Below, piece by piece: positions 137 through 61,697 of a stretch of DNA of 64,000 bases. Where the stretch lies: positions 126,358,001-126,422,000 of the forward strand of contig NC_086097.1 in assembly GCF_963921235.1 (NCBI RefSeq), in the 5' to 3' direction. Below the pieces are notes generated by a model, which worked only from the letters and a program-made list of their open reading frames with translations, made no database searches and was not told where the DNA came from. The stretch's first letter is position 1. Every line of letters begins with the position of its first letter. The translations under genes were made by a program, and so were the position numbers. The stretch is from Mobula hypostoma. Taxonomy: Eukaryota.

Positions 137-230
137 GCATTTGATGCATTAAATCAGTTCTACCTACTTGATCATTCAAACCAAGTACAGTTCTTTTACC
201 TGAAATACCTGGAGCCAGATATCTTTGAAG
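137..230 (+). CDS. TRP-like channel exon [32 protein letters not shown]
   Basis: Acceptor ttctccccctctgaag, donor G|gtggga, open frame, ends in phase 1. Confidence 0.8.
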
Positions 231-3200
231 GTGGGATTTATTTTAATATATGAACCGACGATTGTTGTGAGCAGATCTAATTAAAGTGGTAATTGATTAT
301 TGTGTATCATTTTCTGGATATTCACTGGCACTTCTGTGTGAAAGTATCGCATTAGATAAAAATGCTTGGAAGTCCTTTTCATTGCTTTCTTTGGAAGGGC
401 CATCATTGGAAACTTGAGTCATGTAGTAAAATTTCAACAATTTGCTTGTGGGGCCAGGAACATTGGAAATGCTCCTCCAATTTCCACAATAACATCCTGG
501 GATGCTGCTATATTGGTTTACTTCCTCTCCTCAGAATGTCCTCCTTCCCTCTAGACTTGCCTCAGTGGTATGCCCTAGGAAACAATCTGATTATCTGTTT
601 GCATCCTACAAACCACGTGATATTGTAGTCATGCACTAATAATGGCTGGGCCTCCTGTAAGGGTGTTCAAGCAATCACCCACGCAAAATGCTGTGCTGTA
701 TTTCTTCTTAAGGAGAGTCATACTAAAGCTTTGATTTAAGCCAGTACTGTTTGGATTTTAATTAAGGAGCTACCACAAAAGGATCAATTTCTCTAATGTT
801 TATTTACTAGTGGGGGTAATGCACATTTTTATGTGCGTTGCTTAAGAATAAAGCCAACAGTTCTAATACTGAGACATGACTTGTTGCTCTTTGGGACAAA
901 ATTAATTTATATCTTTGTCATTCTGCTCTTACTTTTAGAGCAAGAAAAAGACAGAAAACAAGCGGTAAGCATTTGGCAAAGAAATGGTAGATAAATTGCA
1001 TTCAGGTCAAGGATTCAGTAATTTACAATATTATTGATATTAACCTACTGTAAATGCAACAGAACTTCCCCTTCATTTGCTGTTGCTGGCTATCTCCCCT
1101 CTATCTTTCAATCCAGATGAGGAGTCTCAACCCGAAATGTCTATTTCTTTCTACAGATGCTATCTAACTCATTGAGTTCCTCCAGCTGTTTATTTTTTGA
1201 TTGAGGTTCCAATTTCTGCTGTCTCTTTGAAACTGAACTGGTCATTCCTATCCATAATTCAGTGTAACTACTTGTTTGCATTCTTCTAAATTTTAACTCT
1301 GTTTTATAGTTGTGGAGAAATATTCTTTAATCTTAAAAATGTAAATCATTGCAACACAAAAACTGTACTTTATTTTATGTTAATTGCATTTCAATGTACA
1401 ATTTAGGCAAGCAAATTTTGTCCCAGAAAAGCTGTGAAGAAATCTTCTCTACCATTATAAAGCCTCTCCCCCAACTCTCAACCTATATACCCCCATAATA
1501 AGTAGCAGTAGTCCTACACCTCTGAGTTTCTTGTTTCTATGCTCTGATGAACTCAGAGCAGCTTAGGCTGAAAATTATTGACATCACATTTAATATATTA
1601 AAGATGTGAATAAGAAGAATGCAATTCACAAAAGAAACTAGTGCAAAACTGTCACATACTACTTAAGGCCAACAACCACAAAGGTCTGAGGACTGGGACT
1701 CAGTAGGTCTTGGTAAGGAGGATGGATAAAGTGTGACCTCTAATTAAATTGTTTTTAAAAATATTGCTTTTTTGTTTCTTATTAGATTGACCTGATAGTG
1801 AAGCATCAGATATTTAATGTCTTAAAACACCCTGTTATTCAGCATTTCATTGACTTGAAATGGAAAAGATATGGATTGTAAGTAGATACTATGTTATCTT
1901 TCATCATTGCCTTATTGAGATTTTCTGTTTTTCTTACAAGCCTGCAATAGTTATGCCTGTTCAATGATTTTTTTTAAGGGTAGAGCTAGTTTAGAGAGCT
2001 GGAGTATTTTATTCTCCCAGAAGGTGGTGAAGAAGGCGAATGCAATGTTGGCATTCATTTCTAGAGGAATAGAGTATAGGAGCAGGGATGTGATGTTGAG
2101 GCTCTATAAGGCGCTGGTGAGACCTCACTTGGAATACTGTGGGCAGTTTTGGTCTCCTTATTTAAGAAAGGATGTGCTGATGTTGGAGAGGGTACAGAGA
2201 AGATTCACTAGAATGATTCCCGGAATGAGATGGTTAACATATGAGGAACGTTTGTCCGCCCTTGGACTGTGCTCCTCGGAGTTCAGAAGAATGAGGGGAG
2301 ACCTCATAGAAACATTTCGAATGTTGAAAGGCATGGACAGAATGGATGTGGCAAAGTTGTTTCCCATGATGGGGGGTCTAGTACGAGAGGGCATGACTTA
2401 AGGATTGAAGGGCGCCCATTCAGAACAGAAATGCGAAGAAATTTTTTTAGCCTGAAGGTGGTGAATCTATGGAATTTGTTGCCATGGGCAGCAGTGGAGG
2501 CCAAGTCATTGGGTGTATTTAAGGCAGAGATTGATAGGTATCTGAGTAGCCAGGGCATCAAAGGTTATGGTGAGAAGGCAATGGAATGGGACTAAATGGG
2601 AGAATGGATCAGCTCATGATAAAATGGCGGAGCAGACTCGATGGGCCGAATGGCCGACTTCTGCTCCTATGTCTTATGGCCTTAGAAGGGATTAACCTTT
2701 AGAATAACTTATATGCACAAATACTTTAAGCAGATTTTCTGTAATCACTCAGAAGGGAGTTGGATGGCTTCCTTGTGTTGGCTTCTACTGACAAGCAATA
2801 AAATTAAATAAGTTATTGAATGATGCATCAAATGACCATTGCATTTTTCAAAACAAAACATTTTTTACATCAGCCTTTGGATTGTAATGAAATTTCTAAG
2901 AGTTCTTTTGGCCTAGAGAGCTTTATGTTTTAAAACCTATTATAGACGACCTCTGCATTACAGCCATTTAGGTAATGGAACTTTGTTCTTAGAGAATTCA
3001 CAAGTAAGTACCCAAATCTTGAGGTATGGAATAAAATTTACTCTTAATGACATCTCTGAAAAGACAGTACACAATTAAACAGCAAATTTATGTTTTTTTC
3101 AACCTTGCATTTCTTAATGTAGGCACAGATGACAGTGTTTTGTGTTTCCGAAAATCACTGTTCACTAGGATTGCAAAACCCTTCTCCCTCCCCTCTCCTG

Positions 3201-12200: not shown

Positions 12201-15200
12201 TCACTAGGTACAAAGTGTTCACCTACACAAACTTCTATCGTATTGCAGGACGGTGCTGGTAAACCACAGCGACATTCTGTGGCTATGTACAATATTTTTT
12301 AATATACCGCTTTTGAATTACTCTCACTGCTATCTGCAACATGTTATTTTCCTTCAAGTAATGAACTTTTAAATTGACTTAATGAACCACAAATTTCTCG
12401 AACCTCTGAAAGACTCAGTGGTCTTAACTCTCAAGCAAGCAGATATGGCACCTTTAAGTGGATGAAAGTTCATTGCCATGGCCGGAAGTGAGGCAGGGGC
12501 AGGGTGGATCTCCAATCAGGTTGAAACACAGAGGAATGAAACCCGTTCTACCCAGCATCTTGTTAGCAAATATGTAGTCGCTGGAGAACAAAATTGAAGA
12601 CCTTGGGGCAAGATTGGTGATTCGAAGGGAAATGATAAATTGTTGTGTTCTGTGCTTTACCAAGACATGGCTTACATCCGGCATGCCAGATATGATGATT
12701 AGACTCAAAGGCTTCTCAATGCGCAGGATGGACTGAACTGCTGATTTGGAAAAAGTGGAGCTGTGTATTTCATGGTAAACTCTCTTTGGTGCTCCAATGT
12801 TTTGTTGAACTTGTGTTCCCCAAGCTTGAAGACCTAACAGTGAAATGTTATTTACCAAAGGAGTTCTCATCTGTGATCCTGACCGCAGTTTACATACCAC
12901 CAGCAGCTGACTATAATCAATCCCTTAAGATACCATATGATGCTGGCACCAAACAAGAAACAGTCTATCCCAATGCTTTTCATATCATAGTCAGGGGTTT
13001 CAGTCATGCTTGTTTCAAGAAATCCCTGCCCAATTACCATCAACATACGTATAACCTATAGCACCAGAGGTCTCAACAAATTAGACTACTTTTATATGAA
13101 GATAAGGAAAGCCTACCACTCCATGCCCAGAATGTATTTCGGGAAATCTGATCGCTTAGCTGTCCTTCTCCTACCTGAATACAAACAGAGACTAAAGAGC
13201 AAGGCTCCAGAGATTAGGACAACTAAGATGAGGTTGTGGAAGGCAGAGGAGCGGCTAAGGGATTGCTTCAAGTCGGTGGACTGGGCCGTGTTCAAGGACT
13301 CATCTGTCGATCTGAATGAGTACACCATGGTTGTCACGGTCTTTATAAAAACAGTTGTAGATGGGTGTCTTCCCCAACCAGAAATCCTGGATGAACCATG
13401 AGATCCACAATCTGCTGACCAAGAAAGTTACAAGGGGTCCAGGTACAATCTCTGGAAAGCCATCTCATGGATGAAGTGGCAATTCCAGACTAAACTTGAA
13501 TCAATGAAGGATGCTTGACAGTTATGGCAGGGCTTGAATGCTATCATTGCACTGGCTGCCTATCCCCTTTCTCCATCTTGATGGTCACCCCATGTTTTGT
13601 GTTGTGCATCTTGTCTGTAACTACCCCTTTGTATGGCCTCTCTATCAACCGTTCAGTCTCCCAGATGATCCTAAATTCAGCCAGTTCCAGCTTCAACTCC
13701 TTAACATGGTCCATTTGAAGCTACAGCTAGGTACACTTCTTGCAGGTGTAATCATCAGGGACACCGGAGGTTCCCATTCCTTCCCACATTTCGCAAGGGG
13801 AGCATTCCAGTATCCCGTCTAGCATCCCCACTGATCTAAATGTGCAATAAAAAAAAGAGATAATAAATAATGAAAAATATAATCTTACTATGGCCATGCC
13901 TCTCCTCGCCAAAGCCTCAATGAACCAAGGTCTCAACTCCCCACTCCAACACTGGCTCACTCACACAATGACTGCTCTGCTTAAACCTAACATTTTCATT
14001 GGTCCTTGCCAAGTGCCTAATTACGCACAATTCAATGTCTCCTTGGGACTGAAGCGCACAAAGTATGCCGACTGAACCACTCGCTTCTCTTAAACTTTCT
14101 CTCCCTCCAAACAATCCAGTGTCTTCTTGGGACTGTGGCGCGCCTAAATGTTCCCAACCTAAGAAACATTCCAGGCTGCAGCTCTGCTGTTGATTGTTCA
14201 ATTTGCTACTCATTGGTGCACTGTGATGCAGTTGGATGTGTAAAATGTGAAGGGAAAAATTCTTAAATCGCTCATCTGAAGAAACTGACTTCTTAATTCA
14301 TAGTTGAGATAACTGATTTCAGTGTCAACTGGGGGAAGGTCAAAATCCCCAGATTTACCACTCCTGAGCTCCAGTCAGTGCTCCTACGAGAAGTGCATTT
14401 GTGGGTATCATGCAGAATCTGTAGAATGAGATGTACTGCTCCCCTTATTCTGTTATATTACCATTGTTAATGCAGGTAACTTGCTGTTTAAGCAAAGTAC
14501 AAAATTATTTTGTCTTGTTATGTAAACTAAGTATGCTCTGTATATGTGCACTGGAATGAATACAATCAAATTTTATTTAAAAATCAAGCACATTATCTAT
14601 GCTAATCCTAAAACGAAAAAAATACCTTTTGCTAATTTGAAAATGCAGAAGAGTAGTAATCATACTTTAAATTAATTTTCAGCTTTGGAGCCTTCATAGT
14701 ATTGCTGTTAAAATTTTTCTTTATCATCACTTGGACAATCCTCATGACAGTAGTACAATGGGAAAAGAGAAAAGATTACATTCTTCCTCAGGTAAAATAT
14801 CATAAAATCACCAGTTGAAAAATAAAAGCTCTCAACGGTTATTACAAATATTCTTACTGTGTACTGGTCAATTATTCATTGACAATAATAAATACCATAT
14901 AAACAAAAAATCTATATTGATGTGGGAAATAAATTATGAATTGTTATTCCCACAAATTGTTTTGTTTTATTTCTTAGCAGCTGGTGTAGTTGGTGACAGT
15001 AAAGTGTCAAGCATGCAAAAGTAAATAGCACAGACAAAAGCCCAGGCCAGTTTCCCTATGGGGCACAATTTCAAGTGGAAGTACAATTAAGGTGGTCTAA
15101 CCCAGGTTAAATTAGAATTGGTTTATTAGTGTCTCATGTACCAAGGTACAGTGAAAAGTTCGTCTTGCATACTTGTCATACAAATCAATTCATTACACAG

Positions 15201-45200: not shown

Positions 45201-48200
45201 TCATGTTTTATATTAATTTCTCAATTTTCATTCCTTTGAAAATACATAGATTTGATGAAAATGTAACACAGAAATCAAATAATGTGGATGATTGGAATCT
45301 GATATAAAAGCACAAGATTCTGAATTATACTCAGCAAGTTAGGCAGTGTCTGTTGGAGCTGAATTAGTTTTAATATTTCAGGTTTACTGGCTTTTCATCA
45401 GAAGATTAAGAAGTTTGAGAAAATCAATCTGTAAGGTGCATAGAAGTGGAACGGGGTGGGGACTAAGTAAAAAGGGAGATTGATGCCAATGAAAAGCCAG
45501 CAGCTTTGGGATATAAATAAAAGAAGATGCAAATTGGAATGCAGAATCATTGGAGATTCTTGAATTCTTTTGAAATTAGAAAAGTTCTCAAACTTTTGAT
45601 CAATATTTCAGACAAACTGGTCACAATTTTGCTTTCTGTTCTCCTTGATCTGCATCTTGCACAATCATCCACTTTGTCATTTAACGTCCTTAACATCCCA
45701 CTGTATAATCAAGCTTGTTTTTCTTTAATCTTTCTTTTCTGGTTCTGGCAAAAAATCATAAGCTTGAAATGGTAAAAAGTTTTCTTTCAATAAGAATGCT
45801 GCCTGACATACTTGTTTAATGGATCTCTTGATAGATTTCCTTAATGTGAATGAAAATAGCTTGAAAACTATTTTATAGAAATGACTTGTGCCAAGTTCAA
45901 TGTGTCCAGAAAGAAATTAGAAATATCAGCAACGAAACTTCACTTGAAGTAATGTACCACAAAAAATGCTTGTCTGAGAATTGTCCAATGTGGAAGCTGC
46001 TATTGAATGGTAAATATGTATCTTTCTTTAATAATTCGATGCATTGCACCCTTGACAGAAATTTGTTTCTTTTCTCTATCCAGTGATACATATAATTTGC
46101 CAGAGAATATATATATGCAAAGAGCAAGCATCCTGCAGTACCTAGAGAATCTGCCATATTTTTCAACACAGGCTGATGAATTCCACAATTATATCCATGT
46201 TATAGCTGGTCCAGTTGTAGAACCATTTTACACCAAGGAAAACATAGTTCAAGAAGAGCATTACCTAAAGCTTGCTGTATTTGAAATAAGAGTAAGTAGT
46301 ACAATTAATGTATGTCATGGCATGGTACAATTTTAGTCTTATTCTTCCTGTATTCAATGTATCATTACAGCTAAGCTGAAAAATATATTCCCTTACAGGA
46401 TGTACTAAACAAAAATAAGTCATTCTGCTCAACTAATCCATGCCACAGTTTTTTCTTCTTTCCTTCGGATCACATCAACATAAAATTCTGTTCTTTTCTC
46501 TCACAGTGTTCATCTAGCTTTTCCTAAGATTAATTATATTTTACCAAAAGATCAGTGGCTCCCAAACTTTTTTATACCATATTCTATGTGTAAACATCAA
46601 AGGCTGGTAAATGGGTTAATTAAGAAGCCCACAGATAATTTAGTCTCACAGTATTTATTCCAAAAATTAAACCATTCAACAGATCTAATATTAAAAACAG
46701 AACTCAACTTTTGTAGGAAAACAGTAATAGCAGTATCAATATGTTGCTTCCATTATTCCTAGTGACATTCGTTGTGTTATTTGTAAATTCCTGAAATTAG
46801 CCATCACATACTAAATTAAAATGGGTTGGTGCAAGGTAAATACTAGGGTCAGTTTAATGGAAACCTAGTTTTTTTTGCTGACTAGTTTATTGGTTTGATG
46901 AAACAACATATATGATCAACGTTTTGGGCTGAGACCCTTCTTCAGGAAGAAAGGTCTCAGCCTGAAACATTGACTGTTTACTTTTTTCCATAGATGCTGC
47001 CTGACTCACTGGGTTCCTCCAGAATTTTGTGTGTGTTGCTTTGTATTTCCATCATCTTCAGGTTTTCTCATATTGGTTTGATTAAATTGTTAGCAGCACA
47101 GTCTGAAAATTGTATTGAATATTCAGACTGTTCCTGCTTTTGTTTTATACTTGGTTCATGCAAAGAATACAGTTTTGCACAACTGACTTAGCATGGATGT
47201 TCTTCAGTGGTGGTACATTTACTTCAATATTTTTTACCTGTAAAGCAGCACCAGAAGATAAATTCTAAGTGAATGAAACAATGTTGAAAACAATATTGTG
47301 CCTATGAAAGCTTCTTTTCTCAAGTTCTCACTTGTGATTAGAACAGGACAATTTAAGGTTTTGTATATCTCTTTGAATAAAATCAAGATTCACTTGTGAT
47401 TAATAGGGACACTTTCCCAGAATTTCAACACAGCATTCTTTTCCAATTATTCTCATGAATTTCCACAATGTTGCTGCTGTAAATAGCTAAAATTTAGATC
47501 ATGCACTTGCAAATAAATTTAATAGCTTACACAGCTGTCCACTTAAAATATGCAGAATTGGACTTTAAATAGTTTTACTTCCTTAGAATTGTGATGTGCA
47601 GTTTATTAGCTTGTTTTTATCCAGAGATTATTTTCCAGGGTTTTTTTTTGCAGCTGTCCTTAACATAGAGTAGTTGACCATTTCTACTCAATCTGGCCTG
47701 AGCCTTTTTGGGACACTGCTATTACATGACCTGATTGCCCACACAGACAATTAAAAAGAGTCTTCACTGCTAATTGAGTGTGAGCCAATTGTTTCAAAAA
47801 GCACCACCAATTATTTTTTAAATATTTTGATTTTGATACAATTATTTATGATTGAAGCCCTGTTATGGGTGTTAATCCATTTAGAAATAGATTTTGGTCT
47901 ATGGTAGAGATATTGCAGATTGTTTTGAGATTCTAATTTGGAGAAAGGCCAATGTTGATGGTATCAGAAATTATCTGGCAAGTTATTGGGACAGACTATT
48001 TACTGGCAAAAGTGCACTTGGTAAGTGAGAGGCCTTCACAAGTGAAATTTTGAGAGTACAAAGCTTGTATGTATCTGTCAGAATAAAAGGCAACCTTGGT
48101 TTTTAAGAGATATTGAGGCCCTGGTTAAGAGAAAAATGGAAGTGCCTAAGTGGATATAGGCAGATAGGAACAAATGAGGTGCCAGAGAACACTTTGAAAG

Positions 48201-51200: not shown

Positions 51201-54200
51201 TTTCCACTTTACATTTATTTAAAAGATTAAAATATAAAGACATATAGCTTTAAAATTTGGCAAAAACAATAAAATATGAAATTTTAAATATCCACTTGAT
51301 TGAAGACAGGAAAAAACTTGGATGGTTCGTATGATTTCCCATTTTCCTCCAATTTGAACCATTCGCAATATGTAAATAACTAAAATGCCTGGTTATTTGA
51401 ACAGGAATTAGTTTATCAAGTTTTCTAGACTGGAGTTGCAGGTTGCAAGATTCTAAAACCTGCCTGCAGATGGAACCAGGTGCAAGTATATTTCATAACT
51501 ATGGATCAATACCTGAGTGTCATGTTGGAATTTACTCCAGGATCTCAAGAAGTTGCCACAATATTAAAAAAAAATGTTACACACAACCACTTAACAAAAT
51601 GGCCTACTAAGGGTAGTTCCCTGAAATTGACCTTCTTTATTAAAAACCATATTCAGAATCCATCCATGTTGATCTATTGTTACTCTCTGCTGAGGAACAT
51701 AGTTTTATAAAATATTCTTCACTATTGTCATTCAGATTTTTCTTGGACTGTTGAGATCAGCAAGCTGCTCTTGACAGAGTAGCTGGAGGCTGCAATTTCT
51801 ACCCTATTCCATAGATATGCATCCTTTGTCCCCTAGCTCAGGAAAGACTAGCTCTACATTATTCCTTGTCTAACAATGACAAAACTGCAACAAGCATTCC
51901 CTGGCATATTCCCAGAGAGAGACATGGAGGCTTCACTGCCCTGTTAAGTTTCTAGTCAGTTGTATTAAAAATAAATATTTCTGTAAGGATATAAGTACAG
52001 CACAGTGTGCACACCCAAAAAAGGTTTGTGGATTTGTGTATCTGGCAGGGAGCCATAATGACTAGAAAATCTTAGGAATGCATGCCTTGTTCCCAAAATA
52101 TGAGGTTTAGTAAAATATTTTTGTAAAATTGCTTTTATGTTTGTAAATATACATGGAAATATCTGATATCCTGAAGTCAACTACATCCTTGTCCTTGTAA
52201 TTTTCTCATTTTCTCATTCGATTTCTTATTTTTTGTGAATGAAGAACATTGGGTATCTGAAAGAAACATCGACCTTAAAGAGCTTTGTGACAGTAGATTT
52301 ACTTTGAAGTGACGACTCTCAAAATCATGGTAATTTTTTAATGTTATGCATGTACTTTATGTATTTTCCTATGTAGATGGAATTAGAAGAATTCATGCAG
52401 AAAGTAGAAAAAGATGAACACTTCAATTTTTTGGATAAATTGATAAAAATATATGGAGATGAGGAAGTAATGGGAAGAATATCAACTACACTTAGGTAAT
52501 GTCAAATTCAGATTCATTTATTTATCATATGTACATTGAAACATACTGTAAAGTGCGCATTTGTGTTAGCAACTGACACAACTAAAGGATGTGCTGAGGG
52601 CAGCCCACATATGTTGCCACACATTCCGGCAGCAACATTGTATACCCATATTGTTCAATAGAACAACATGTGCAACAGCAAAAACAAAACAAGCCCCTTT
52701 CCTCTCTCTCTCTCTCTCACCCACCCACTCACTCACTCACGCACATAGAAAGGCCTCCGACCCCAGAACAGGACATCTTCAGGCCTCACTCCTCCAGTGG
52801 ACTCCTAGCCTCAAATACTTTTTTGATTACAGGCTCCCAATGTGGAAGGAGTGCTTATTTGGAAATCAATAGTTTCTGGCCTGCTGTATTTTGATTTAAA
52901 TGGTATATTAAAGAAAGAAATACTTAATTTTCTTCATGAATTTTAAGTACATGTTCCAAAACATGTTAAAGAATAGCCTAAGATTGCTAGTATTGATGTT
53001 TGCATAGAAACACAACAATCCTTATTACATTCTCTGCCTGCTGGCAAGTGGATGTCAACTGTAAAAATGAGCGATCTAACTTTGCATTAGAAAAGCAGAA
53101 GAACCAGACAGATTTAACTTTTTCAAGAAAAAGATACATCTGAACAATGATTATCCATTCTGGGAGTAACTTACACACACACCATGAGAACAATACCATT
53201 AATATTTAATTGCTTGTCACTGGTCGAATTAGCTATTATTAAATGTCCCTTAAATAAAGTAGATGTCCCCTTGGTGGTGGAAGCTTTTTGGTCTGGTTGC
53301 TGCCGTGATATTTCCAGGTGTATAATGACATAGGGTCGCCATGAGTCAATGACGACACAGCAACACTCAATAGCAACAGCAGTGGCATGTCAACGACAGC
53401 TTGAATTCCTACACAGCATCTTGAACATTACAGGCACACCGTGCTAGTTGTGGAGGGAGTAAGTGTTCTTGGTGGGATGACAATTGGGCAGACAGCTTTG
53501 TGCTGAACGGTGCTAAGCATCTTCAACAAACAAGAGAAAATCTGTAGACACTGGAAATCCAAACCACACACACTAAATGCTGGGGGAGCTCAGCAGGCCA
53601 GGCAGCATTTACGGAAAAGAGTACAGTCAACGTTTTGGGCCGAGATCCTTCATCAGGACTGTAGAAAAAATAATGAGGAGTCAGAATTAGAAGATGGGGG
53701 AGGAGAGGAAGAAACACAAAATGATAGATGAACCCGGGAGTGTGGGGGGGGGGAATAACGGGTGAAGTAAAGAGCTGGGAAGTTGACTGGTGAAAGAGAT
53801 ACAGGACTGGAGAAGGGGGAATCTGATAGGAGAGGACTGAAGACCATGGTAGAAAGAAAAGGGGGAGGAGCACCAGAAGGTAGTGATGGGCAGGTAAGGA
53901 GGTAAGGTGAGAGATGGAAATGGGAATGGGGAATGGGTGAAGGTGGGGGAAGCAGTACTGGAAGTTCGAGAAATCGATGTTCATGCCATCAGGTTGGAGG
54001 CTATCCAGATGGAATATAAGGTGTTGTTCCTCCAACCTGAGTGTAGCCTCATCACGACAGTAGAGGAGAGAATGGACTGACATGTTAGTATGGGAATGGG
54101 AATTGGAATTAAAATGGGTGGCCACAGGGAGATCCCGGTTTTTCTGGCAGACGGAGCATAAGTACTCAGTGAAGTGGTTCCTTCAATCTACATTGGGTCT

Positions 54201-57200: not shown

Positions 57201-60200
57201 AATTACTTAAACCCTTTTTACATATATTATCATTAAACTTTTTGGGAATCTAGGGTGTATTACATTAGGCTTTGATATTTTGTATAACTATAAATGTAGT
57301 CACTGCAATTAAACTTTGATTATGAACTCAAGTTATAAATAAATTAAACCATTGCAATGATAATGCAAACCATTGCCTTTAGGAAAGGGACTTGTTAAAA
57401 TTGTGGACATTGCAATAAGATGTTAAAGATTTTTGACTACCACATTGTACCCTCTTTTCTTGTTGCCAAAGCAAAATCCTTTTCACTATCTAAAGGGAGT
57501 TACATCATCATAATCAAATTACGTAGGTACCCATTAACTTTTTGTTAATCTTAAGCACAAACAGAAAATATTGAAATTGTACAGCAGGTTTGGCAGCACC
57601 TTGGGAAAGAGAAATAAAGTTAAAATTTGAAGTCAGAGAATCTTTGTCAGAAGGATAGAATCTTCAATTTGAACATCTACAGTTTTTTCTATTTCCATGG
57701 ATGCCACTGAGTGTTTCCAGCACTTACTGCTTATGTTTCACATTCCAGTATCTTTTAATTGATATATTGTTCATGCCCATCTCTTTAGAGTTTGGGAACA
57801 CAGGAGGGTGCATCCAGAAAAACTGCCATTCCAAGGATACACCATGAAACTCACAATTTTTATAGACAGCTATTTCCACATGTAATCTTTATATTTCAAA
57901 TATGTACTACCTCTTACCTCCAATAGCGCTGTATTTGATCCCTTATCAATATACTTTCCTTCATTATTGCTTCTGATTGCAAATGGATCTCCAATATTAC
58001 TATTTGCTTAATGAGATTTAATTTAATCCAAGACATGAATACTGTCTTTGGGCTTGTTCTTCTCACTATTCTATCACATACTGGAACAAGTTTACACAAA
58101 TGCTTGCATTTGATATGTAGTTCCCCCATCAGCTTATAAAACATTCTTCAAATTATTTTCTACTAAAACTTAATCTTTCTAAAAAGTTATAAACGATGGA
58201 TGTATTAACCCTCACAAATCTATTTATTCATTAAACCTTCATGTCTTAAAGTCCAAGCTTGATGCTGCTCATATATTTCCAGATTTACTCCATCTTTTAC
58301 TGTTTGAACCTTAACAATGTGCTTGTTCCTGGATCTTGTTCATTCAGATTGGTTTCCTGATTTAAAAAATATTAACTTTGGAATCCAGTCTTTTAATGTT
58401 TGGAGTAATCTGTTTATAGGTAAGTCAATGAATGTAATTGCAATAGTCAGAAATGGACTGTACTAAATTATTAAAAAAATCTACAACAGGAATGGACACA
58501 GCTGGATAGTGGCCCCTTTCATTATGCTATTATAATATTCATGTAAATAGTGCCATTATTTAAATAAATTGTAATGCACTCTGGGAACAGTAATAGCAGG
58601 GTTGCTTAATGTGATACTTTCGTGATTAAAGTAATATATTTCCCAGAAGGGTGCCATTGCCATAAATGTAGATGACTATGCAACACATTTAACAATGCAA
58701 GGAAAATAGCTTTACTGTGTCATATAGAATGTTAAATCCAATTATTAGTTATTATGTAAATATACTGGAATTTTCTTTTCTTTCAGTGAGGAAAGGGTGT
58801 TAGCAATCATGAGAACAGTTTCAAATTTACAGAAAACAGTCGCAATACTCCATGTGCAACAGGATGATAGTTACAGTTATCTAAAGAATAATATGGAAAA
58901 ACTGAGTGATCTTTTAGAAAAGGAATTAAATGCCAAATCAAAGATAGGTACATAAAATACTTAAATCAATGTTTTCATGTTTACTTAATAATTTAAATAT
59001 TCTGTAAAATTTTTGTACTAATATGCAAGGCAAAATATTATTCTGTGAATCTAAATTCTGAGGCATATAAATTATATCACACCTATTTTTGATGTCCTAA
59101 AATGCTGTTACTTGTCAAACTGAATCTGCTGAAAAACTGTGATGTATGTCAAAAGCAAGTGTATAATCATATCCCTGTTGAATAGATTCATAGAATGCAT
59201 GTTCATTACTGTGAGTTTTGTTACATCATCACAACAGGTGAAGCCTAATTTGGAGTAATGAGTACAGTCCTGGTCACCTACCTCCAGGAAAGATAATAGA
59301 GAAAATTTACAAGGATGTTACCAGGACTTGAGGACACAGTTTATATGGAAAGGTTGAATAGGTTCGGACTTTATTGCTTGGAGCATAGGAGAATGAGCAA
59401 GGTTTGATAGAGGTATCCAAAATTATGAAGGTATGAACAGAGTAAATACAAGCAGGCTATTTCCACTGAAGTTGTGTGGTACAAGAACTAGAGGTCATGG
59501 GTTAAGAATGAAGGATGAAACAATCACGAGGAGCATGCTGAGTAACTTCTTCACTCAGAGAGTGGTGAGAGTGTGAAACAGCCAATGGAAGTAGTGGATG
59601 CAGGTTCAATTTCATTATTTAAGAGAAGTTTGGATAAGTACATGGATGGGGAGTGTATGGGCTGCTATGATCCAAATGCAGGTCAATGAGATTATGCAGA
59701 ATAGTAGTTTAGCATGGACTAGATAGGCCAAAGGGCCTGTTTCTGTGCTGTAATGCAATATAACTATGACTCTTAGAGAAAGATGTTCTGGGTGCAACTC
59801 ATGAATACAGCTCTGTTCTGCATTGTCTTTGCAAGATCTTGCTGTTTCATCAGCTCGAGAACAGCATGATTCAAAGCAAGAGAGGCAGTTGGAGCTTGAG
59901 AAGAAAAAGGTACAAGAAGTAAGATTAGAAGGTGAGGAGAAGGAGGTGTGATAATGGAAATCATGAGGACCAAAGTGCCTCATTATAACCTACTGCATCT
60001 CTTCAGAGATTGGCTGTACAAAGAATGAGAGAGGTACTGTTGCTTGGCAGGCATCAGAGGGAGAAACATGAGCACTAAGCAGCCAGTGCTACAATCCCTC
60101 CACTCAACTAGGCAATGAGGATCTGCTTTAGGAGGTGAGACATTGTTTGGTAGCCCTCACACTCTTCCTGTTACTTTTGCTCCCATTAGTTTTTAGATTG

Positions 60201-61697
60201 TGACTCGTGACCCTTTTGCTCAATATAAGCAAATTTCTGAGCCTCTAAGGTTTTCAAAGTTGTCAGCATAAGCACACAACATGCCACGATCTCCAAATGT
60301 GCTCGAGGCATGCTGCTCGGTCTCCCTGGCCTGAGGCAGGCAAGTGAATCTCATCCCAGGAAGTCCAATGTAGTTTTCCACTATTGTTCTGCTACTTTTG
60401 AGTATCTTGCTTTATCTATGCTCAGCTGATGTGGTTAGAAATTAAACTGGTGTGAGCAGCCAGGGAAATAAATGATAGCTTTTGCTCTCCAGATCCACCC
60501 TTGCCGCACTGATGGCTGCTACAAATATCAGGCAGTGCAGTGGAGTCCTGGGTGCTACAAGAAAACATGATACTCATTCATCTGCTAATACTTCTCATGA
60601 TTCACAACCACTTATACATCTTGGGAGTGTAAATCCTTACTGTTTATGAAAACATCTGTATTATTAATCTGAGCCTTCAAGGACATGGTTATATTCACTG
60701 ACTTTCAGCCCTTTTGGGAAGCAAGTATTGATGGCAAAACCCAGTGCCTAAGATGCCCCCTTCTCACTAAAATTGAAGATGATAAATTTACTCCTCTGCC
60801 AATAGAGAGTTTTGTGATCTCTGATGGAGCAGTATCCAGTGAATTGAGAAATATCACATTGCTCTACTGTGCCTGCCTGATAATCCAGTGACCACAAAAC
60901 TGAATGTCACAATTAACATTGACTTCCATGCTGGGCACAGTTCAGATGCAAAGCATGATCAAAGGCTGTCCCAAAGGATATCACTTATCATTATGGTGGC
61001 GTACTTTGAAATCCGAGTAGCTAATACTGTCCAATATGATCTTCTACAAGTCAAATCCATCTTTGACCATAACATGTTTTAGAAAAGTATAATCTATTTA
61101 CATTTCTAACTGTTATGTGTCAGATACACTTACTGGGAGATCTTAAAAATCAGAAAAAACATGCATCCAGGTTCCTGATTGAGGTAACTATATGATTTGC
61201 ACCTTGTGGGAAATACAGGAATGTGTGTTAACTCAAAATCCATGAAATTATAATGTGTAGATTTGTGGTTTATTTCAGTGTAATTTTTCAAGACCCTCAG
61301 GACAGCTATCTAAATAGTATGATAGATCATGAAATGTGGGCTTGGAAGATAGTATTCCCTGCCATCAATTTGCCTTGTGTTGACTGCAGATTCATATGTG
61401 TACTCAGTCATAGAATGGAAGCAGGAAGAACTTTCCCAAGTATGTCCCTAGCTCATTTGGAGAGATCAGTGTCCACCTTTCTTAAGGTAGATGTAAGTGT
61501 GGGGGTCTGTCTATTCTTCTGATCAGGAATTGGCACTAATCAAATTGTGAAGAAAAATGTACATTAGATGGATAATCAGTAATACTAATGAAAGCAAATG
61601 TATTTCAGATTATGGAGTTTCTAGCAATGTACCTGATGTTGAAACTCAAACAATGCCATTCTTCAAGTTAATAAAGAAGAAACGGACTCATAGGTAA
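137..61697 (+). CDS. Spliced, 5'-partial gene for a divergent TRP-superfamily 6-TM cation channel (14 predicted exons, about 575 aa in window)
   Basis: Exons 137-230, 939-964, 1786-1877, 14683-14791, 19942-20112, 26783-26850, 29617-29787, 38226-38344, 40748-40952, 46084-46291, 52377-52495, 58787-58947, 59836-59931 and 61609-61697 have AG acceptors, GT donors on internal exons, and matching phases. They total 1728 nt with no internal stop. Motifs: pre-S1 [19 protein letters not shown]4-S5 linker [12 protein letters not shown], pore [16 protein letters not shown]6 [11 protein letters not shown]-like helix YMQRASIL. Confidence 0.9.
939..964 (+). CDS. TRP-like channel 26-nt micro-exon B: (E)QEKDRKQA
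   Basis: Acceptor ttctgctcttacttttag and donor GCG|gtaagc. Converts phase 1 to the phase 0 needed to join exons A and C. Confidence 0.7.
1075..1230 (+). mobile_element. Degenerate Penelope-like terminal repeat (pLTR) with decayed hammerhead motif
   Basis: cagatga-ggagtctcaaccc-gaaa-tgtc followed by the family tail agatgct...gagttcctccagc. Confidence 0.6.
1786..1877 (+). CDS. TRP-like channel exon C (pre-S1): [30 protein letters not shown]
   Basis: Acceptor tttgtttcttattag and donor TT|gtaagt. The LxHPV...LKW..YG motif is typical of TRPA/TRPV-type pre-S1. Confidence 0.9.
2020..2685 (+). mobile_element. CR1-clade LINE 3' fragment (ORF2 C-terminus plus tail)
   Basis: [37 protein letters not shown] and VVNLWNLLP; 3' tail ctgctcctatgtcttatgg. 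Confidence 0.9.
3679..3924 (-). repeat. 3' LTR of Gypsy element
   Basis: TGTTATG...CACAACA, similar to 8467-8710. Confidence 0.9.
4934..7270 (-). mobile_element. Internally deleted CR1 LINE (ORF1 Zn-finger plus SGNH-esterase-like domain, APE endonuclease, 3' tail; RT absent) nested in the Gypsy element
   Basis: ORF1 CLSCEMW...HICQKC and VIGDSIVRG...[34 protein letters not shown]. These join at about 5160 directly to the terminal VGAWNALP...FKRLLDRYM. Confidence 0.85.
8467..8710 (-). repeat. 5' LTR of Gypsy element
   Basis: TGTTATG...CACAACA followed by TSD AATAT. Confidence 0.9.
8988..9510 (-). mobile_element. CR1 LINE 3' fragment
   Basis: [23 protein letters not shown] plus CR1-type tail. 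Confidence 0.85.
9511..9766 (-). mobile_element. Probable 5' end of an L1-like LINE (G-run 5' terminus, CpG-rich UTR, basic ORF1 start MPRKPQQKK)
   Basis: Minus strand starts GGGGGGGGGCGTCACGTGATG; ATG at 9617 opens a Lys-rich peptide. Confidence 0.5.
9770..10915 (-). mobile_element. Rex1/Babar-like non-LTR retrotransposon 3' part
   Basis: [13 protein letters not shown]...SGTGAPQGT and [10 protein letters not shown]...[12 protein letters not shown]-rich tail. Confidence 0.85.
10916..12235 (-). mobile_element. CR1 LINE internal fragment (RT region, decayed)
   Basis: [15 protein letters not shown]...[19 protein letters not shown] and [12 protein letters not shown]. Confidence 0.85.
12240..13550 (+). 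mobile_element. Rex1/Babar-like element 5' part (APE endonuclease)
   Basis: [64 protein letters not shown]. Confidence 0.8.
13555..14050 (-). mobile_element. CR1 5' UTR / ORF1 N-terminal fragment
   Basis: ECSPCEMWE...[10 protein letters not shown] zinc-finger, as in the other CR1 ORF1 copies here. Confidence 0.7.
14683..14791 (+). CDS. TRP-like channel exon D (S1): (F)[36 protein letters not shown]
   Basis: Acceptor ttttcag and donor CAG|gtaaaa; phase 2 to 0; hydrophobic helix. Confidence 0.9.
15115..19410 (-). mobile_element. Rex1/Babar-like fragment split in two (15115-15600 and about 18955-19410) by a CR1 insertion
   Basis: KFAEDTTAV...[14 protein letters not shown] in the right half; family 3' tail in the left half; sequence continuous across the CR1. 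Confidence 0.75.
15601..18955 (-). mobile_element. Near-full-length decayed CR1 LINE (ORF1, partial APE, RT, C-terminus, tail) with internal deletions
   Basis: ORF1 CARCQMW/HICARC and [52 protein letters not shown]. Tail (atagaaac)n. Deletion junction at about 17325. Confidence 0.92.
19942..20112 (+). CDS. TRP-like channel exon E (S2 plus S2-S3 loop): [57 protein letters not shown]
   Basis: Acceptor gggtttcag and donor TCG|gtaatt; 171 nt, phase 0-0. Confidence 0.9.
20920..21820 (+). mobile_element. Two old CR1 3' fragments
   Basis: FMRMLPGLE and characteristic CR1 3' UTR/tail sequence, heavily decayed. Confidence 0.65.
22480..23465 (-). mobile_element. CR1 LINE RT fragment
   Basis: [12 protein letters not shown]...KFTDDTK...[14 protein letters not shown]. 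Confidence 0.88.
23500..24960 (-). mobile_element. Gypsy-like LTR element remnant (gag joined to integrase C-terminal half, PPT, partial 3' LTR)
   Basis: IN motifs [15 protein letters not shown] and [13 protein letters not shown]. Gag motifs [10 protein letters not shown] and DRIVCGI...DLTLEK. PPT AAAGGGGGAAGAT precedes TG at 23614 on the minus strand. Confidence 0.85.
25598..25745 (+). mobile_element. Solo Penelope-like pLTR
   Basis: Same terminal sequence as the ends of the GIY-YIG-bearing copies at 53525 and 63527. Confidence 0.85.
25608..25643 (+). ncRNA. Minimal type-I hammerhead ribozyme motif, catalytic core intact
   Basis: GTC-CTGACGA-A-GGATCTCGGCCC-GAAA-TG-TC^GAC; stem I GTC/GAC; predicted cleavage after C25639. 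Confidence 0.7.
26783..26850 (+). CDS. TRP-like channel exon [23 protein letters not shown](W)
   Basis: Acceptor ttctaatatcag and donor TG|gtgagt; phase 0 to 2. Confidence 0.88.
27138..27365 (+). mobile_element. Solo LTR (228 bp)
   Basis: TG...CA termini, 5-bp TSD GGTTT (27133-27137 and 27366-27370), internal AATAAA at about 27306. Confidence 0.85.
27405..28310 (+). mobile_element. CR1 LINE RT/C-terminal fragment
   Basis: VTSGFPQGS...FINDLDEE...[10 protein letters not shown]. Confidence 0.85.
28311..29305 (-). mobile_element. CR1 LINE RT/C-terminal fragment (opposite strand)
   Basis: ERVQGRFTG...EFKRMRGN...RTRGHNLKI; minus-strand DFQKAFDKV near 29270. Confidence 0.8.
29617..29787 (+). CDS. 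TRP-like channel exon G (S3-S4): (W)[56 protein letters not shown](R)
   Basis: Acceptor tttcattttaatttag and donor AG|gtgagt; 171 nt, phase 2-2. Confidence 0.9.
29852..32660 (-). mobile_element. Internally deleted CR1 LINE (5' UTR, ORF1 esterase-like, APE N-terminus joined to RT C-terminus and tail)
   Basis: EDSIVRG...[18 protein letters not shown]...ESLWVE, junction at about 30885, [15 protein letters not shown]. Confidence 0.85.
32680..34600. mobile_element. Cluster of short CR1 fragments on both strands, plus a possible hAT-like terminus (caatgttccctctaa, about 32804)
   Basis: [15 protein letters not shown] at 33730 (+), minus-strand CR1 pieces at 32680-33470, and an NYKPVSLT fragment at about 34415. 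Confidence 0.65.
34630..36900 (+). mobile_element. CR1 LINE RT-to-tail, interrupted by a Rex-like insertion at about 35700-36530
   Basis: [26 protein letters not shown]1 resumes at about 36550 and ends with its tail at about 36900. Confidence 0.8.
35700..36530 (-). mobile_element. Rex1/Babar-like 3' fragment
   Basis: [19 protein letters not shown]; (aagattc)-like tail. Confidence 0.75.
37095..38030 (+). mobile_element. CR1 LINE 3' fragment
   Basis: [20 protein letters not shown] and [13 protein letters not shown]; tail cttatggtcttat. Confidence 0.9.
38226..38344 (+). CDS. TRP-like channel exon H (S4-S5 linker, S5): (R)[39 protein letters not shown](G)
   Basis: Acceptor ttgttctgtag and donor G|gtatga; GP..IMI motif typical of the TRP S4-S5 linker. 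Confidence 0.93.
39176..39585 (-). mobile_element. CR1 LINE 3' fragment
   Basis: [22 protein letters not shown] plus tail. Confidence 0.85.
39871..40216 (+). mobile_element. tRNA-derived SINE with V-SINE-like core (HE1-like) and (TAAA)n/(TAGA)n tail
   Basis: A-box-like TAGCATAGTGG, B-box-like ATTCAATCC, central GGGTT..CC.AGGTGCTCCGGTTT core, LINE-like 3' end. Confidence 0.8.
40748..40952 (+). CDS. TRP-like channel exon I (pore helix, filter, S6): (G)[67 protein letters not shown](T)
   Basis: Acceptor ttttttgtag and donor AC|gtaagt; NLLIAML S6 motif. Confidence 0.95.
41555..42000 (-). mobile_element. Rex1/Babar-like RT fragment
   Basis: [16 protein letters not shown]...[12 protein letters not shown]...[10 protein letters not shown]. 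Confidence 0.8.
42240..42720 (-). mobile_element. Old Penelope-like fragment (RT-EN linker region)
   Basis: Minus-strand peptide ...[24 protein letters not shown] resembles the PLE linker; heavily decayed. Confidence 0.45.
42957..43037. mobile_element. 81-bp hAT/Charlie-type MITE
   Basis: CAGTGGTTCCCAACCT left end, degenerate inverted right end, 8-bp TSD CTCTAAAC / CTCTAAGC. Confidence 0.75.
43204..43413 (+). mobile_element. Young tRNA-derived SINE with (CTT)n tail and 14-bp TSD
   Basis: A-box TGGCGTAGTGG, B-box GTTCGAATCC, TSD TCTTATGTTAAACC at 43190-43203 and 43414-43427, CpGs retained. Confidence 0.88.
43980..44420 (+). mobile_element. Penelope-like element 3' end (EN C-terminus plus pLTR with stem-II-deleted hammerhead)
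   Basis: [19 protein letters not shown]...GLNIDFS; cagtc-ctgatg-cccaaaatgttaactg. Confidence 0.8.
45305..45810. mobile_element. Old Penelope-like remnant with pLTR-like ends in opposite orientation
   Basis: Minus strand CTGATGA...CCTGAAA at about 45376-45402; plus-strand decayed pLTR ...gaatgctgcctgac at about 45740-45810. Confidence 0.45.
46084..46291 (+). CDS. TRP-like channel exon J (TRP-like helix): (T)[69 protein letters not shown]
   Basis: Acceptor ttctttttctctatccag and donor AGA|gtaagt; phase 2 to 0. Confidence 0.92.
46916..47072. mobile_element. Penelope-like pLTR with fold-back (inverted) hammerhead segment
   Basis: Arms 46916-46943 and 46946-46973 are reverse complements at 24/28 positions, followed by the family tail. 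Confidence 0.85.
47895..50065 (+). mobile_element. CR1 LINE, 5'-truncated and decayed (linker, RT, C-terminus, tail)
   Basis: [17 protein letters not shown]...[16 protein letters not shown] at about 49161, tail ctctatgattctatga. Confidence 0.92.
52377..52495 (+). CDS. TRP-like channel exon [40 protein letters not shown](S)
   Basis: Acceptor tattttcctatgtag and donor AG|gtaatg; phase 0 to 2 matches exon L. Confidence 0.8.
52503..52840 (-). mobile_element. Short retroposon 3' end with (CT)n/(CTCA)n microsatellite
   Basis: aaattcagattcatttatt tail resembling the Rex-type 3' ends elsewhere in the window. Confidence 0.5.
53325..53385 (+). mobile_element. RTE-clade 3' terminus remnant
   Basis: catagggtcgccatgagtc...caacagcag resembles RTE-type 3' ends. 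Confidence 0.5.
53622..53663 (-). ncRNA. Hammerhead motif, probably inactive (GAAA to AAAA)
   Basis: Minus strand TACAGTC-CTGATGA-A-GGATCTCGGCCC-AAAA-CG-TT-GACTGTA; perfect 7-bp stem I. Confidence 0.7.
54570..54607 (+). ncRNA. Minimal type-I hammerhead ribozyme motif, catalytic core intact
   Basis: CTGTC-CTGATGA-A-GGGTCTCGGCCT-GAAA-CA-TC^GACTG; predicted cleavage after C54602. Confidence 0.7.
54918..56007 (-). mobile_element. Rex1/Babar-like element, 5'-truncated, uninterrupted 289-aa RT C-terminal ORF
   Basis: [10 protein letters not shown]...[12 protein letters not shown]...[10 protein letters not shown]...[29 protein letters not shown]; (caagatt)n tail. Confidence 0.93.
56010..56270 (-). 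mobile_element. CR1 3' fragment
   Basis: [16 protein letters not shown]...FKRLLDRYM. Confidence 0.85.
57555..57752. mobile_element. Old inverted pair of Penelope-like pLTR remnants
   Basis: Left half (aacagaaaatattgaaa...cagcaggtttggcagca) is loosely reverse-complementary to the right half (ggatgccactgagtgtttccagca...ttccag). Confidence 0.5.
58787..58947 (+). CDS. TRP-like channel exon L (coiled-coil-like): (S)[53 protein letters not shown]
   Basis: Acceptor ttttcttttctttcag and donor G|gtacat; phase 2 to 1; heptad-like hydrophobic spacing. Confidence 0.82.
59235..59775 (+). mobile_element. CR1 3' fragment
   Basis: ggtgaagcctaatttggagt...tcacctacc, ttcttcactcagagagtggtgagagtgtg, tail ctatgactct. 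Confidence 0.85.
59836..59931 (+). CDS. Candidate exon M (symmetric, 96 nt): (D)[31 protein letters not shown]
   Basis: Acceptor ctctgttctgcattgtctttgcaag and donor AAG|gtgagg; phase 1-1, open, charged helix. Confidence 0.55.
61609..61697 (+). CDS. Candidate last coding exon N: (D)[28 protein letters not shown]
   Basis: Acceptor gtatttcag, phase 1 start. TAA at 61695-61697 overlaps a possible donor AG|gtaaac. Confidence 0.6.

Follow-up and report, generated by a model that had tools for sequence, protein, structure and literature searches.

Does the 64,000-nt stretch of the Mobula hypostoma genome analysed here (the window) carry an intact gene for a channel of the TRP superfamily, and to which TRP family does that gene belong? 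The original prediction proposed a hidden multi-exon gene of a poorly characterised lineage, possibly the TRPV-like "TRPVL" group, which it took to be described mainly from invertebrates and retained in cartilaginous fish. That view of the group has been overtaken: according to the sections of Mayeur et al. 2024 (PMC11979771) consulted here, vertebrates, too, possess Trpvl, which had earlier been described in protostomes and non-bilaterians and now bears the name Trpw. In the same sections, trpw1 is named in Xenopus, lungfish, zebrafish, gar and chondrichthyans; catshark trpw2.1-2.3 fall together with three genes of lampreys and one of a chimaera, with low support inside the trpw2 clade; and all Trpw proteins are given six transmembrane helices and four ankyrin repeats. 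By joining the exons of the window to further exons upstream, and by comparing the product with its relatives in sequence, phylogeny and predicted structure, we conclude with considerable confidence that the exons of the window belong to a trpw2 gene, of the TRPVL (= Trpw) family, that is intact, protein-coding and under selection in this devil ray. Vertebrate TRPVL/Trpw genes, including catshark trpw2, have thus been known since 2024, and what is added here is the ray trpw2 gene. To a TRP specialist aware of the catshark paper the existence of the gene will come as no surprise; the value of the finding lies in a fuller gene model and in two pore features that can be tested.

Structure of the gene

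Thirteen exons with homology to ray and shark proteins (tblastn) span positions 137-61697 of the window on the plus strand. They are listed here together with one candidate exon that was left out of the model.

137..230, +, exon w1: linker after the ankyrin repeats; tblastn 85% to Mobula birostris XP_072105122.1 and to the Narcine ortholog; AG/GT ends
939..964, +, exon w2: 26-nt micro-exon; tblastn E 1.4 to XP_072105122.1 residues 188-199; AG/GT ends, frame kept
1786..1877, +, exon w3: pre-S1 helix with HPV..LKW..YG; motif match, tblastn, splice sites
14683..14791, +, exon w4: S1; tblastn, splice sites, hydropathy
19942..20112, +, exon w5: S2, which continues as a long helix in the cytoplasm, plus the CHPxWP motif of the family; tblastn, ortholog model
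26783..26850, +, exon w6: return helix of the S2-S3 hairpin; tblastn, ortholog model
29617..29787, +, exon w7: S3 and S4; splice-site scan, tblastn, ortholog model
38226..38344, +, exon w8: GPFVIMI S4-S5 linker and S5; motif match, tblastn
40748..40952, +, exon w9: pore helix, filter SVVDN, S6 with a Glu at the hinge position, NLLIAML gate; tblastn
46084..46291, +, exon w10: TRP-like helix YMQRASIL without the TRP-box Trp, and the next segment; tblastn
52377..52495, +, exon w11: first C-terminal helix; tblastn, ortholog model
58787..58947, +, exon w12: long C-terminal helix (769-816 in the ortholog model), probably a coiled coil; tblastn
59854..59931, +, candidate cassette exon: 78 nt, in frame; good splice scores, frame kept
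61609..61697, +, exon w13: last coding exon, TAA at 61695-61697; tblastn

The exons are collinear over 61 kb with best E-values of 1e-38, and a chance origin is therefore excluded. All 12 introns between them have GT-AG ends, and the joined frame runs for 542 codons with no stop up to 61693. As had been claimed, the exons lie mostly outside the open reading frames of the window: only 1 of the 13 is held in an ORF of at least 110 aa. In exon w9 the Pfam Ion_trans match has an E-value of 0.0037, under the curated cut-off, and Rfam gave no match. Four presumed-RNA runs were compared with 37500-53000, but repeats dominated the alignments; of the joints, 15 were listed (763 more exist) and none of these lay at an exon junction, which counts neither for nor against expression.

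The window reads HR*TK at its C-terminal tail where the orthologs read HRSTQ, so that the stop at 61695-61697 (the asterisk) stands in place of the ortholog Ser codon, and the tail is 13-17 residues shorter than those of the orthologs, with which it aligns without an intron. A search for a later exon after the GT at 61694 found none in about 60 kb downstream, and 61697 is the true end of the gene.

The original prediction counted 14 exons and about 575 codons; thirteen exons in an open frame stand, and the fourteenth does not. Adding the candidate at 59854-59931 would give 14 exons and 569 aa plus the stop, and this candidate is unsupported, because it is missing from the aligned Narcine, Scyliorhinus and Heterodontus proteins; it has no Pfam match either. 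It is purine-rich, encodes a charged helical peptide and is single-copy in the genome. It was also considered as a repeat: repeat matches occurred in its upstream flank only and its peptide matched only itself, and it is therefore neither a shown transposon nor a supported exon, possibly a young cassette exon or a product of chance.

Searching the genome with the Narcine ortholog revealed six further coding exons upstream of the window on the same contig (126,302,605-126,352,472), with AG/GT ends and an intact frame. They encode ankyrin repeats, which bears out the suggestion that such repeats might lie upstream. The resulting model has 19 exons and 802 codons with one stop, the terminal one. 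No start-codon exon was found in 126,260,001-126,302,604, and the product is at least 801 aa long. This 801-aa product is 75.8% identical to the Narcine protein over 798 aa and 57.0% identical to that of Scyliorhinus over 805 aa (XP_038666131/2, the catshark ortholog, at 57%). Orthologs are present in five other elasmobranch genera, with five RefSeq isoforms in Narcine, and carry the RefSeq names "TRPA1-like" or "pyrexia-like". Four Pfam Ank stretches were found in the full-length Narcine ortholog, and Ion_trans scored over its cut-off in three of the five shark and ray proteins scanned.

The gene had also been called hidden, and this does not hold, as a partly annotated counterpart exists: the window peptide is 99.1% identical to Mobula birostris XP_072105122.1 over 352 aa, and a search with the pore exon returned five shark and ray proteins, of which the Mobula birostris model was the best (100%). 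XP_072105122.1 reads into the intron after the S6 exon at its 3' end, lacks four 3' exons and three exons of the ankyrin region, and opens at its N-terminus with an unrelated stretch in which an integrase is weakly matched. The present model thus corrects a truncated database model, along with misleading "TRPA1-like" names.

The predicted channel and its pore

The structural model of the Narcine ortholog (built with 76 relatives; pLDDT 82.4, pTM 0.73) starts with the ankyrin repeats, passes through six membrane helices and a TRP-type helix, and ends in long C-terminal helices. S2 extends 50 residues into the cytoplasm and the chain comes back through the CHPxWP motif, which is present in its strict form in 150 of the 328 proteins collected. 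Domain order, model helices and matches to TRP folds all agree with the TRP-channel architecture originally proposed. Of the motifs quoted for it, HPV..LKW..YG, GPFVIMI and NLLIAML are present as given, while DxNY and QRA..IL have no literal match, the peptide reading VVDNYNY and QRASIL. IGMGD, WKFxR and LGD are missing from the peptide by motif match, as stated. The Group 1 TRP fingerprint (W426, G563, F638, an aromatic residue at 666, N676, L678, I679 and A680) is found at all eight positions, and the TRP-box Trp (rTRPV1 697) in none of 44 aligned rows, with Ile in the window.

Phe638 and Asn676 are 38 residues apart in 43 of 44 rows, as in TRPV1, rather than the 45 of TRPA1, which contradicts the earlier description of the filter as TRPA-like. 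In the register set by this spacing, with which pairwise alignments to TRPV5/6 disagree, the window has Val at 643, the usual Gly position, and Asp at 644. Asp644 is present in all five rows of the window's ortholog group. The next position, 645, is acidic in 29 of 33 trpw1 and invertebrate rows versus none of these five, and position 670 is Ser in 32 of 33 slowly evolving relatives versus Glu in 5/5 rows of the window group. Among 246 proteins that passed a motif filter, the S6 Glu occurs in 12, all from the window's ortholog group, where it is fixed (12/12).

By analogy with established TRP structure, four subunits would form the cation channel, the S6 Ile at the position of TRPV1 679 and TRPV6 I575 would serve as the inner gate, and a ring of four Asp residues at TRPV1 position 644 would confer Ca2+ permeability; TRPV1 M644 is presumably the equivalent of TRPV6 D542. 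Position 670 aligns with TRPV5/6 A566, and in the literature, as far as our sources extend, TRPV6 A566 is a gating hinge and D542 a Ca2+-binding ring. The product is likely to assemble as a tetramer and to conduct cations non-selectively, with permeability to Ca2+, and its gating may differ from that of trpw1. Lacking the second filter acid, it might also be less Ca2+-preferring than trpw1, a proposal to which we give slightly less than even weight; that the S6 Glu, at the hinge position of TRPV6 A566, makes gating dependent on pH or on a salt bridge is speculative and somewhat unlikely. A description of the S6-hinge Glu and of the loss of the second filter acid in the window group was not found in those parts of the literature that we covered, although supplements may contain them. 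With a near-complete 19-exon model, and with paralogs that differ at the filter and at the S6 hinge, selectivity and gating become directly testable.

An alternative is that the gene belongs to the right family but encodes a non-conducting or modulatory subunit, which would act in a heteromer with trpw1 or with another trpw2 copy, just as Nanchung requires Inactive for function. The linker between S6 and the TRP helix hardly varies across the family (SDTFQRVYDNA) and has been rewritten in the window group, S6 carries a charged residue, four paralogs share the genome, and identity between ray and shark is 61-68% versus 81-84% for trpw1, all of which fits such a subunit. The parts expected of a conducting pore are nevertheless kept, namely the filter Asp, the S6 Asn and Ala, the linker Gly and the pore Phe in all five rows and the gate Ile in four of the five, and we consider the modulatory subunit quite unlikely.

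As for the role of the putative trpw2 channel, PMC11979771, in the sections consulted, describes trpw1 as expressed in the olfactory neuron layer, and in its Table 3 trpw1 is the one family gene enriched in any sensory sample, no trpw2 copy being listed for ampullae, for eye, or for brain plus olfactory epithelium. A sensory role of trpw2 is therefore not supported. We tentatively suggest, with rather less than even confidence, that the channel mediates ligand- or lipid-gated Ca2+ or cation entry in non-sensory tissue, the non-sensory part of this guess being made because no trpw2 copy is listed as enriched in those catshark samples. No functional recording of any TRPVL/Trpw channel was found in literature searches that took in the titles and abstract openings of 15 out of 27 matches, and the statement in the original prediction that ligand and function are unknown stands.

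Phylogenetic position and family assignment

A profile of the channel region matched 294 proteins, of which 104 entered a fast tree (42 selected rows and further representatives in which no fewer than 340 of 429 positions were covered, after two multi-domain outliers were dropped) and 44 a careful one, computed with IQ-TREE on 44 rows by 428 columns of family members, with no canonical TRP sequence included and the root placed on six unnamed rows. The window pairs with Narcine (support 100/96) inside a five-row ortholog group (100/100), which in turn lies in an 11-row clade (100/99) together with two other fast lineages and three proteins from lampreys; two catshark proteins and a second one from Narcine also belong to this clade, for which the tool issued a long-branch warning. 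This clade is sister to the slow vertebrate copies. The vertebrates group together (99/96), and vertebrates with tunicates (99/97), within a family that includes Owenia, Lineus, Haliotis, Lottia and amphioxus. The 11-row clade and the copy count mirror the catshark trpw2 copies of Mayeur et al. with their lamprey genes, which supports the trpw2 placement.

Tree position, domain layout and family fingerprint residues agree with the guess of a TRPVL gene. The TRPVL fingerprint of Cabezas-Bratesco et al. 2022 (PMC9242649), N441 and A697, is given in the sections consulted as a consensus row and not as a stated membership rule; it is found in 30/33 (N441) and 32/33 (A697) of the slow relatives. 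The window has K441 and I697, which we read as derived changes. The six TRPVL accessions seen in PMC9242649 are not among the cluster members listed, and we infer the match to trpw2 from taxon pattern, domain layout and fingerprint residues, without an accession match. Published trees place TRPVL outside TRPV (PMC9242649 and PMC11979771, in the parts covered here), and the tree of PMC11979771, again as far as covered, makes Trpa the sister of Trpw and keeps Trpw outside both the TRPA and the TRPV clades. Further literature drawn on in part comprises PMC9664204, PMC12980990, PMC8857925, PMC7306681, PMC13402157, PMC6028574, PMC10578198 and bioRxiv 2021.11.14.466824.

The lamprey grouping could instead result from long-branch attraction. 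In that case the gene would have arisen from trpw1 by a recent duplication in sharks or rays, or would be the ortholog of teleost si:ch73-193i2.2 that sharks otherwise lack. The tool's warning would fit this, as would the probable location of trpw1 and trpw2 genes on one chromosome in both catshark and Heterodontus, where the contigs bearing them are equal in length; in Mobula hypostoma, on the other hand, trpw1 and the window gene are on different contigs (C36 and C1), and AU tests reject joining the window group to the teleost and coelacanth-b genes (p 4.7e-7) or with chondrichthyan trpw1 (p 3.5e-6), these groups having been chosen after the tree was seen and the tests being subject to the same long-branch pull as the tree model. 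We regard an origin of this kind as very improbable. Still less credible is the view that the gene is a pseudogene in decay, or a copy on which selection was relaxed recently: the long branch, the stop 13-17 codons ahead of the orthologs' ends and the truncated Mobula birostris RefSeq model might suggest one, but 801 codons in 19 exons with canonical sites and no internal stop, orthologs in five other elasmobranch genera, five Narcine RefSeq isoforms and a group-specific Glu fixed in 12/12 all argue against it.

The trpw2 gene shares with trpw1 and other TRPVL genes the CHPxWP hairpin, the filter Asp, the 38-residue pore spacing and the absence of the TRP-box Trp, at 37% identity in the channel region, and the intron positions around the S5 and pore exons are common to it and to the trpw1 copy of the same genome. 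It differs in its faster evolution, in its filter (SVVDN versus TLVDD/E), in the S6 Glu in place of Ser, in the rewritten S6-TRP linker, and in K441 and I697 in place of N and A. It resembles catshark trpw2.1-2.3 in its ankyrin repeats and six transmembrane helices and in being one of three fast copies (contigs C1, C2 and C76 in the ray) that group with lamprey genes; its tail is slightly shorter, and the sections of PMC11979771 consulted say nothing of the altered pore and S6 residues.

Among canonical families, the ortholog model is about equally like TRPA1 and TRPV5/6, at 14-19% identity. TRPA1 gives the best Foldseek E-value (2.6e-16) and has in common with the ray channel the pre-S1 region and a TRP-like helix without Trp; it differs in identity (15-17%), in S6 (NLLIG versus NLLIA in the window), in pore spacing (45 versus 38 residues) and in having many more ankyrin repeats (17 in the fly, according to a PDB title) than the approximately four of the window gene. 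Where TRPA1 has the S6 fingerprint N-L-I-G-R, the window has Ala680 and Ile697. TRPV5 gives the best structural Z (23.2; rmsd 6.7 over 519 aligned residues), and TRPV5/TRPV6 share a glycine-free filter with Asp and a similar S4-S5 linker and S6, at TM-scores of about 0.41; identity is 17-19%, and the window protein differs in lacking the TRP-box Trp and in having a long S2-S3 hairpin and long C-terminal helices. A channel-only profile matched PKD2, Inactive, Nanchung and TRPV entries of the PDB at similar scores (75-93 bits), which therefore do not name the sister family, and sequence, profile and Foldseek searches found no close relative among PDB entries. In the ESM Atlas, a search by features returned generic TRP clusters below 0.9 and a search by structure a chordate "pyrexia" cluster (TM 0.91), which is probably the TRPVL/Trpw family. 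For TRPC and TRPM, the peptide had no WKFxR match, and no TRPC- or TRPM-specific Pfam domain was found in the five shark and ray proteins. The gene is in all likelihood not TRPA1, TRPV, TRPC or TRPM, and is set apart from the canonical families because solved TRP structures match it at only 14-19% identity. A divergent TRPA1-like or TRPV5/6-like gene, as the RefSeq names, the first rank of TRPA1 in Foldseek and the best PDB sequence matches of the shark ortholog (TRPV5/6, E 1e-6) would have it, is the least credible reading of all, given that the same shark query scores 31.5 bits to TRPV5 against 228-233 bits to frog and ray trpw1, that identity to solved TRPs is so low, that there are only about four ankyrin repeats and no TRP-box Trp in any of the 44 rows, and that the bit scores for TIGR00870 are 32-45, where the cut-off is 499.

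The name Trpw itself has a second use: choanoflagellate "TRPW" (bioRxiv 10.64898/2026.06.15.732144 and.732245, in the parts covered here) is like the present family in name and Group 1 TRP fold only, being a distinct family whose defining feature is a WD40 propeller and which animals are said to have lost, and its name clashes with that of Mayeur et al. The full-length Narcine ortholog gave no Pfam match for WD40.

The coelacanth has two slow copies (P0044/P0060 versus P0130/P0072) at 53% identity to each other, the first of which sits with genes of sharks and frogs and the second with those of gar and teleosts (100/100). Because the coelacanth copies are split in this way, the published "Trpw1" may comprise two ancient paralogs, and zebrafish si:ch73-193i2.2 may not be a strict ortholog of catshark trpw1. 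A broader proposal is that the shark and ray group constitutes a functionally new TRP subtype, whose S6 Glu, neutral outer filter ring and rewritten S6-TRP linker would bring proton-dependent gating and a selectivity unlike that of trpw1, that it descends from a branch of the vertebrate stem surviving only in lampreys and cartilaginous fish, and that "Trpw1" is two ancient paralogs (shark/frog/coelacanth-a and teleost/gar/coelacanth-b); taken as a whole, we judge this unlikely.

Distribution, other copies and intron content

With the shark and ray channel region as query, only five proteins were found, one of them from a frog at 36%. The frog protein in turn retrieved 298, and among the best 120, which were examined, were proteins of frogs, salamanders, coelacanth, sharks and rays, gar, bowfin, teleosts, tunicates, hemichordates, echinoderms, an annelid and a nemertean, so that the family is by no means one retained in cartilaginous fish in particular, as first suggested. 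Amniotes were absent among these 120 of 298. The matches listed are named "pyrexia-like", "TRPA1-like", "TRPV6-like", XCAT2 and si:ch73-193i2.2. A HMMER search gave 326 proteins at E <=0.001 (150 listed), and ten of these were looked up: three were from lampreys and one was a second catshark copy, the others being from abalone, limpet and amphioxus, with three lacking a name. The named matches in the trpw2 branch appear to come from lampreys and chondrichthyans only. The unnamed fragments P0208, P0177 and P0145 resemble trpw2, P0208 also having the S6 Glu, and their host species could widen the range of trpw2.

The Mobula hypostoma genome (3.48 Gb) has four family loci, on contigs C1 (the window gene), C36, C76 and C2; a separate ortholog of the teleost-type gene was not seen in it. 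Those of the three other copies are catalogued as L002, L003, L006, L007, L012 and L013. The trpw1 gene is at C36:83.37-83.47 Mb (minus strand), with a pore exon 89% identical to the conserved Pristis copy. The two other fast copies are at C76:26.61-26.69 Mb (minus strand), with the filter SVQDQW, and at C2:82.07-82.16 Mb (minus strand), with the filter TIPHHY, which lacks the filter Asp. Squalene monooxygenase is located at C36:83.56-83.60 Mb, about 90 kb from trpw1, an adjacency also suggested by a fused Scyliorhinus torazame model, and offers a handle for synteny. Xenopus XCAT2 ("calcium transporter 2", BAC24124.1; P0039, P0275), a cloned cDNA, is trpw1.

The introns of the window gene are laden with transposable elements, as first described: Pfam matches to RVT_1, endonuclease and GDSL esterase mark retroelement remains in 6 of the 11 intronic ORFs scanned. 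Retroelement fragments on the minus strand, with reverse transcriptase, endonuclease and GDSL-esterase ORFs, were located in the window at 5152-6869, 16342-18467, 22551-23138 and 55138-56016, and these four would constitute a LINE-like set. The intron between exons w7 and w8 contains an inverted pair of 0.9-kb sequences (29853-30730 and 37130-38026), 77% identical, which are probably two copies of one repeat.
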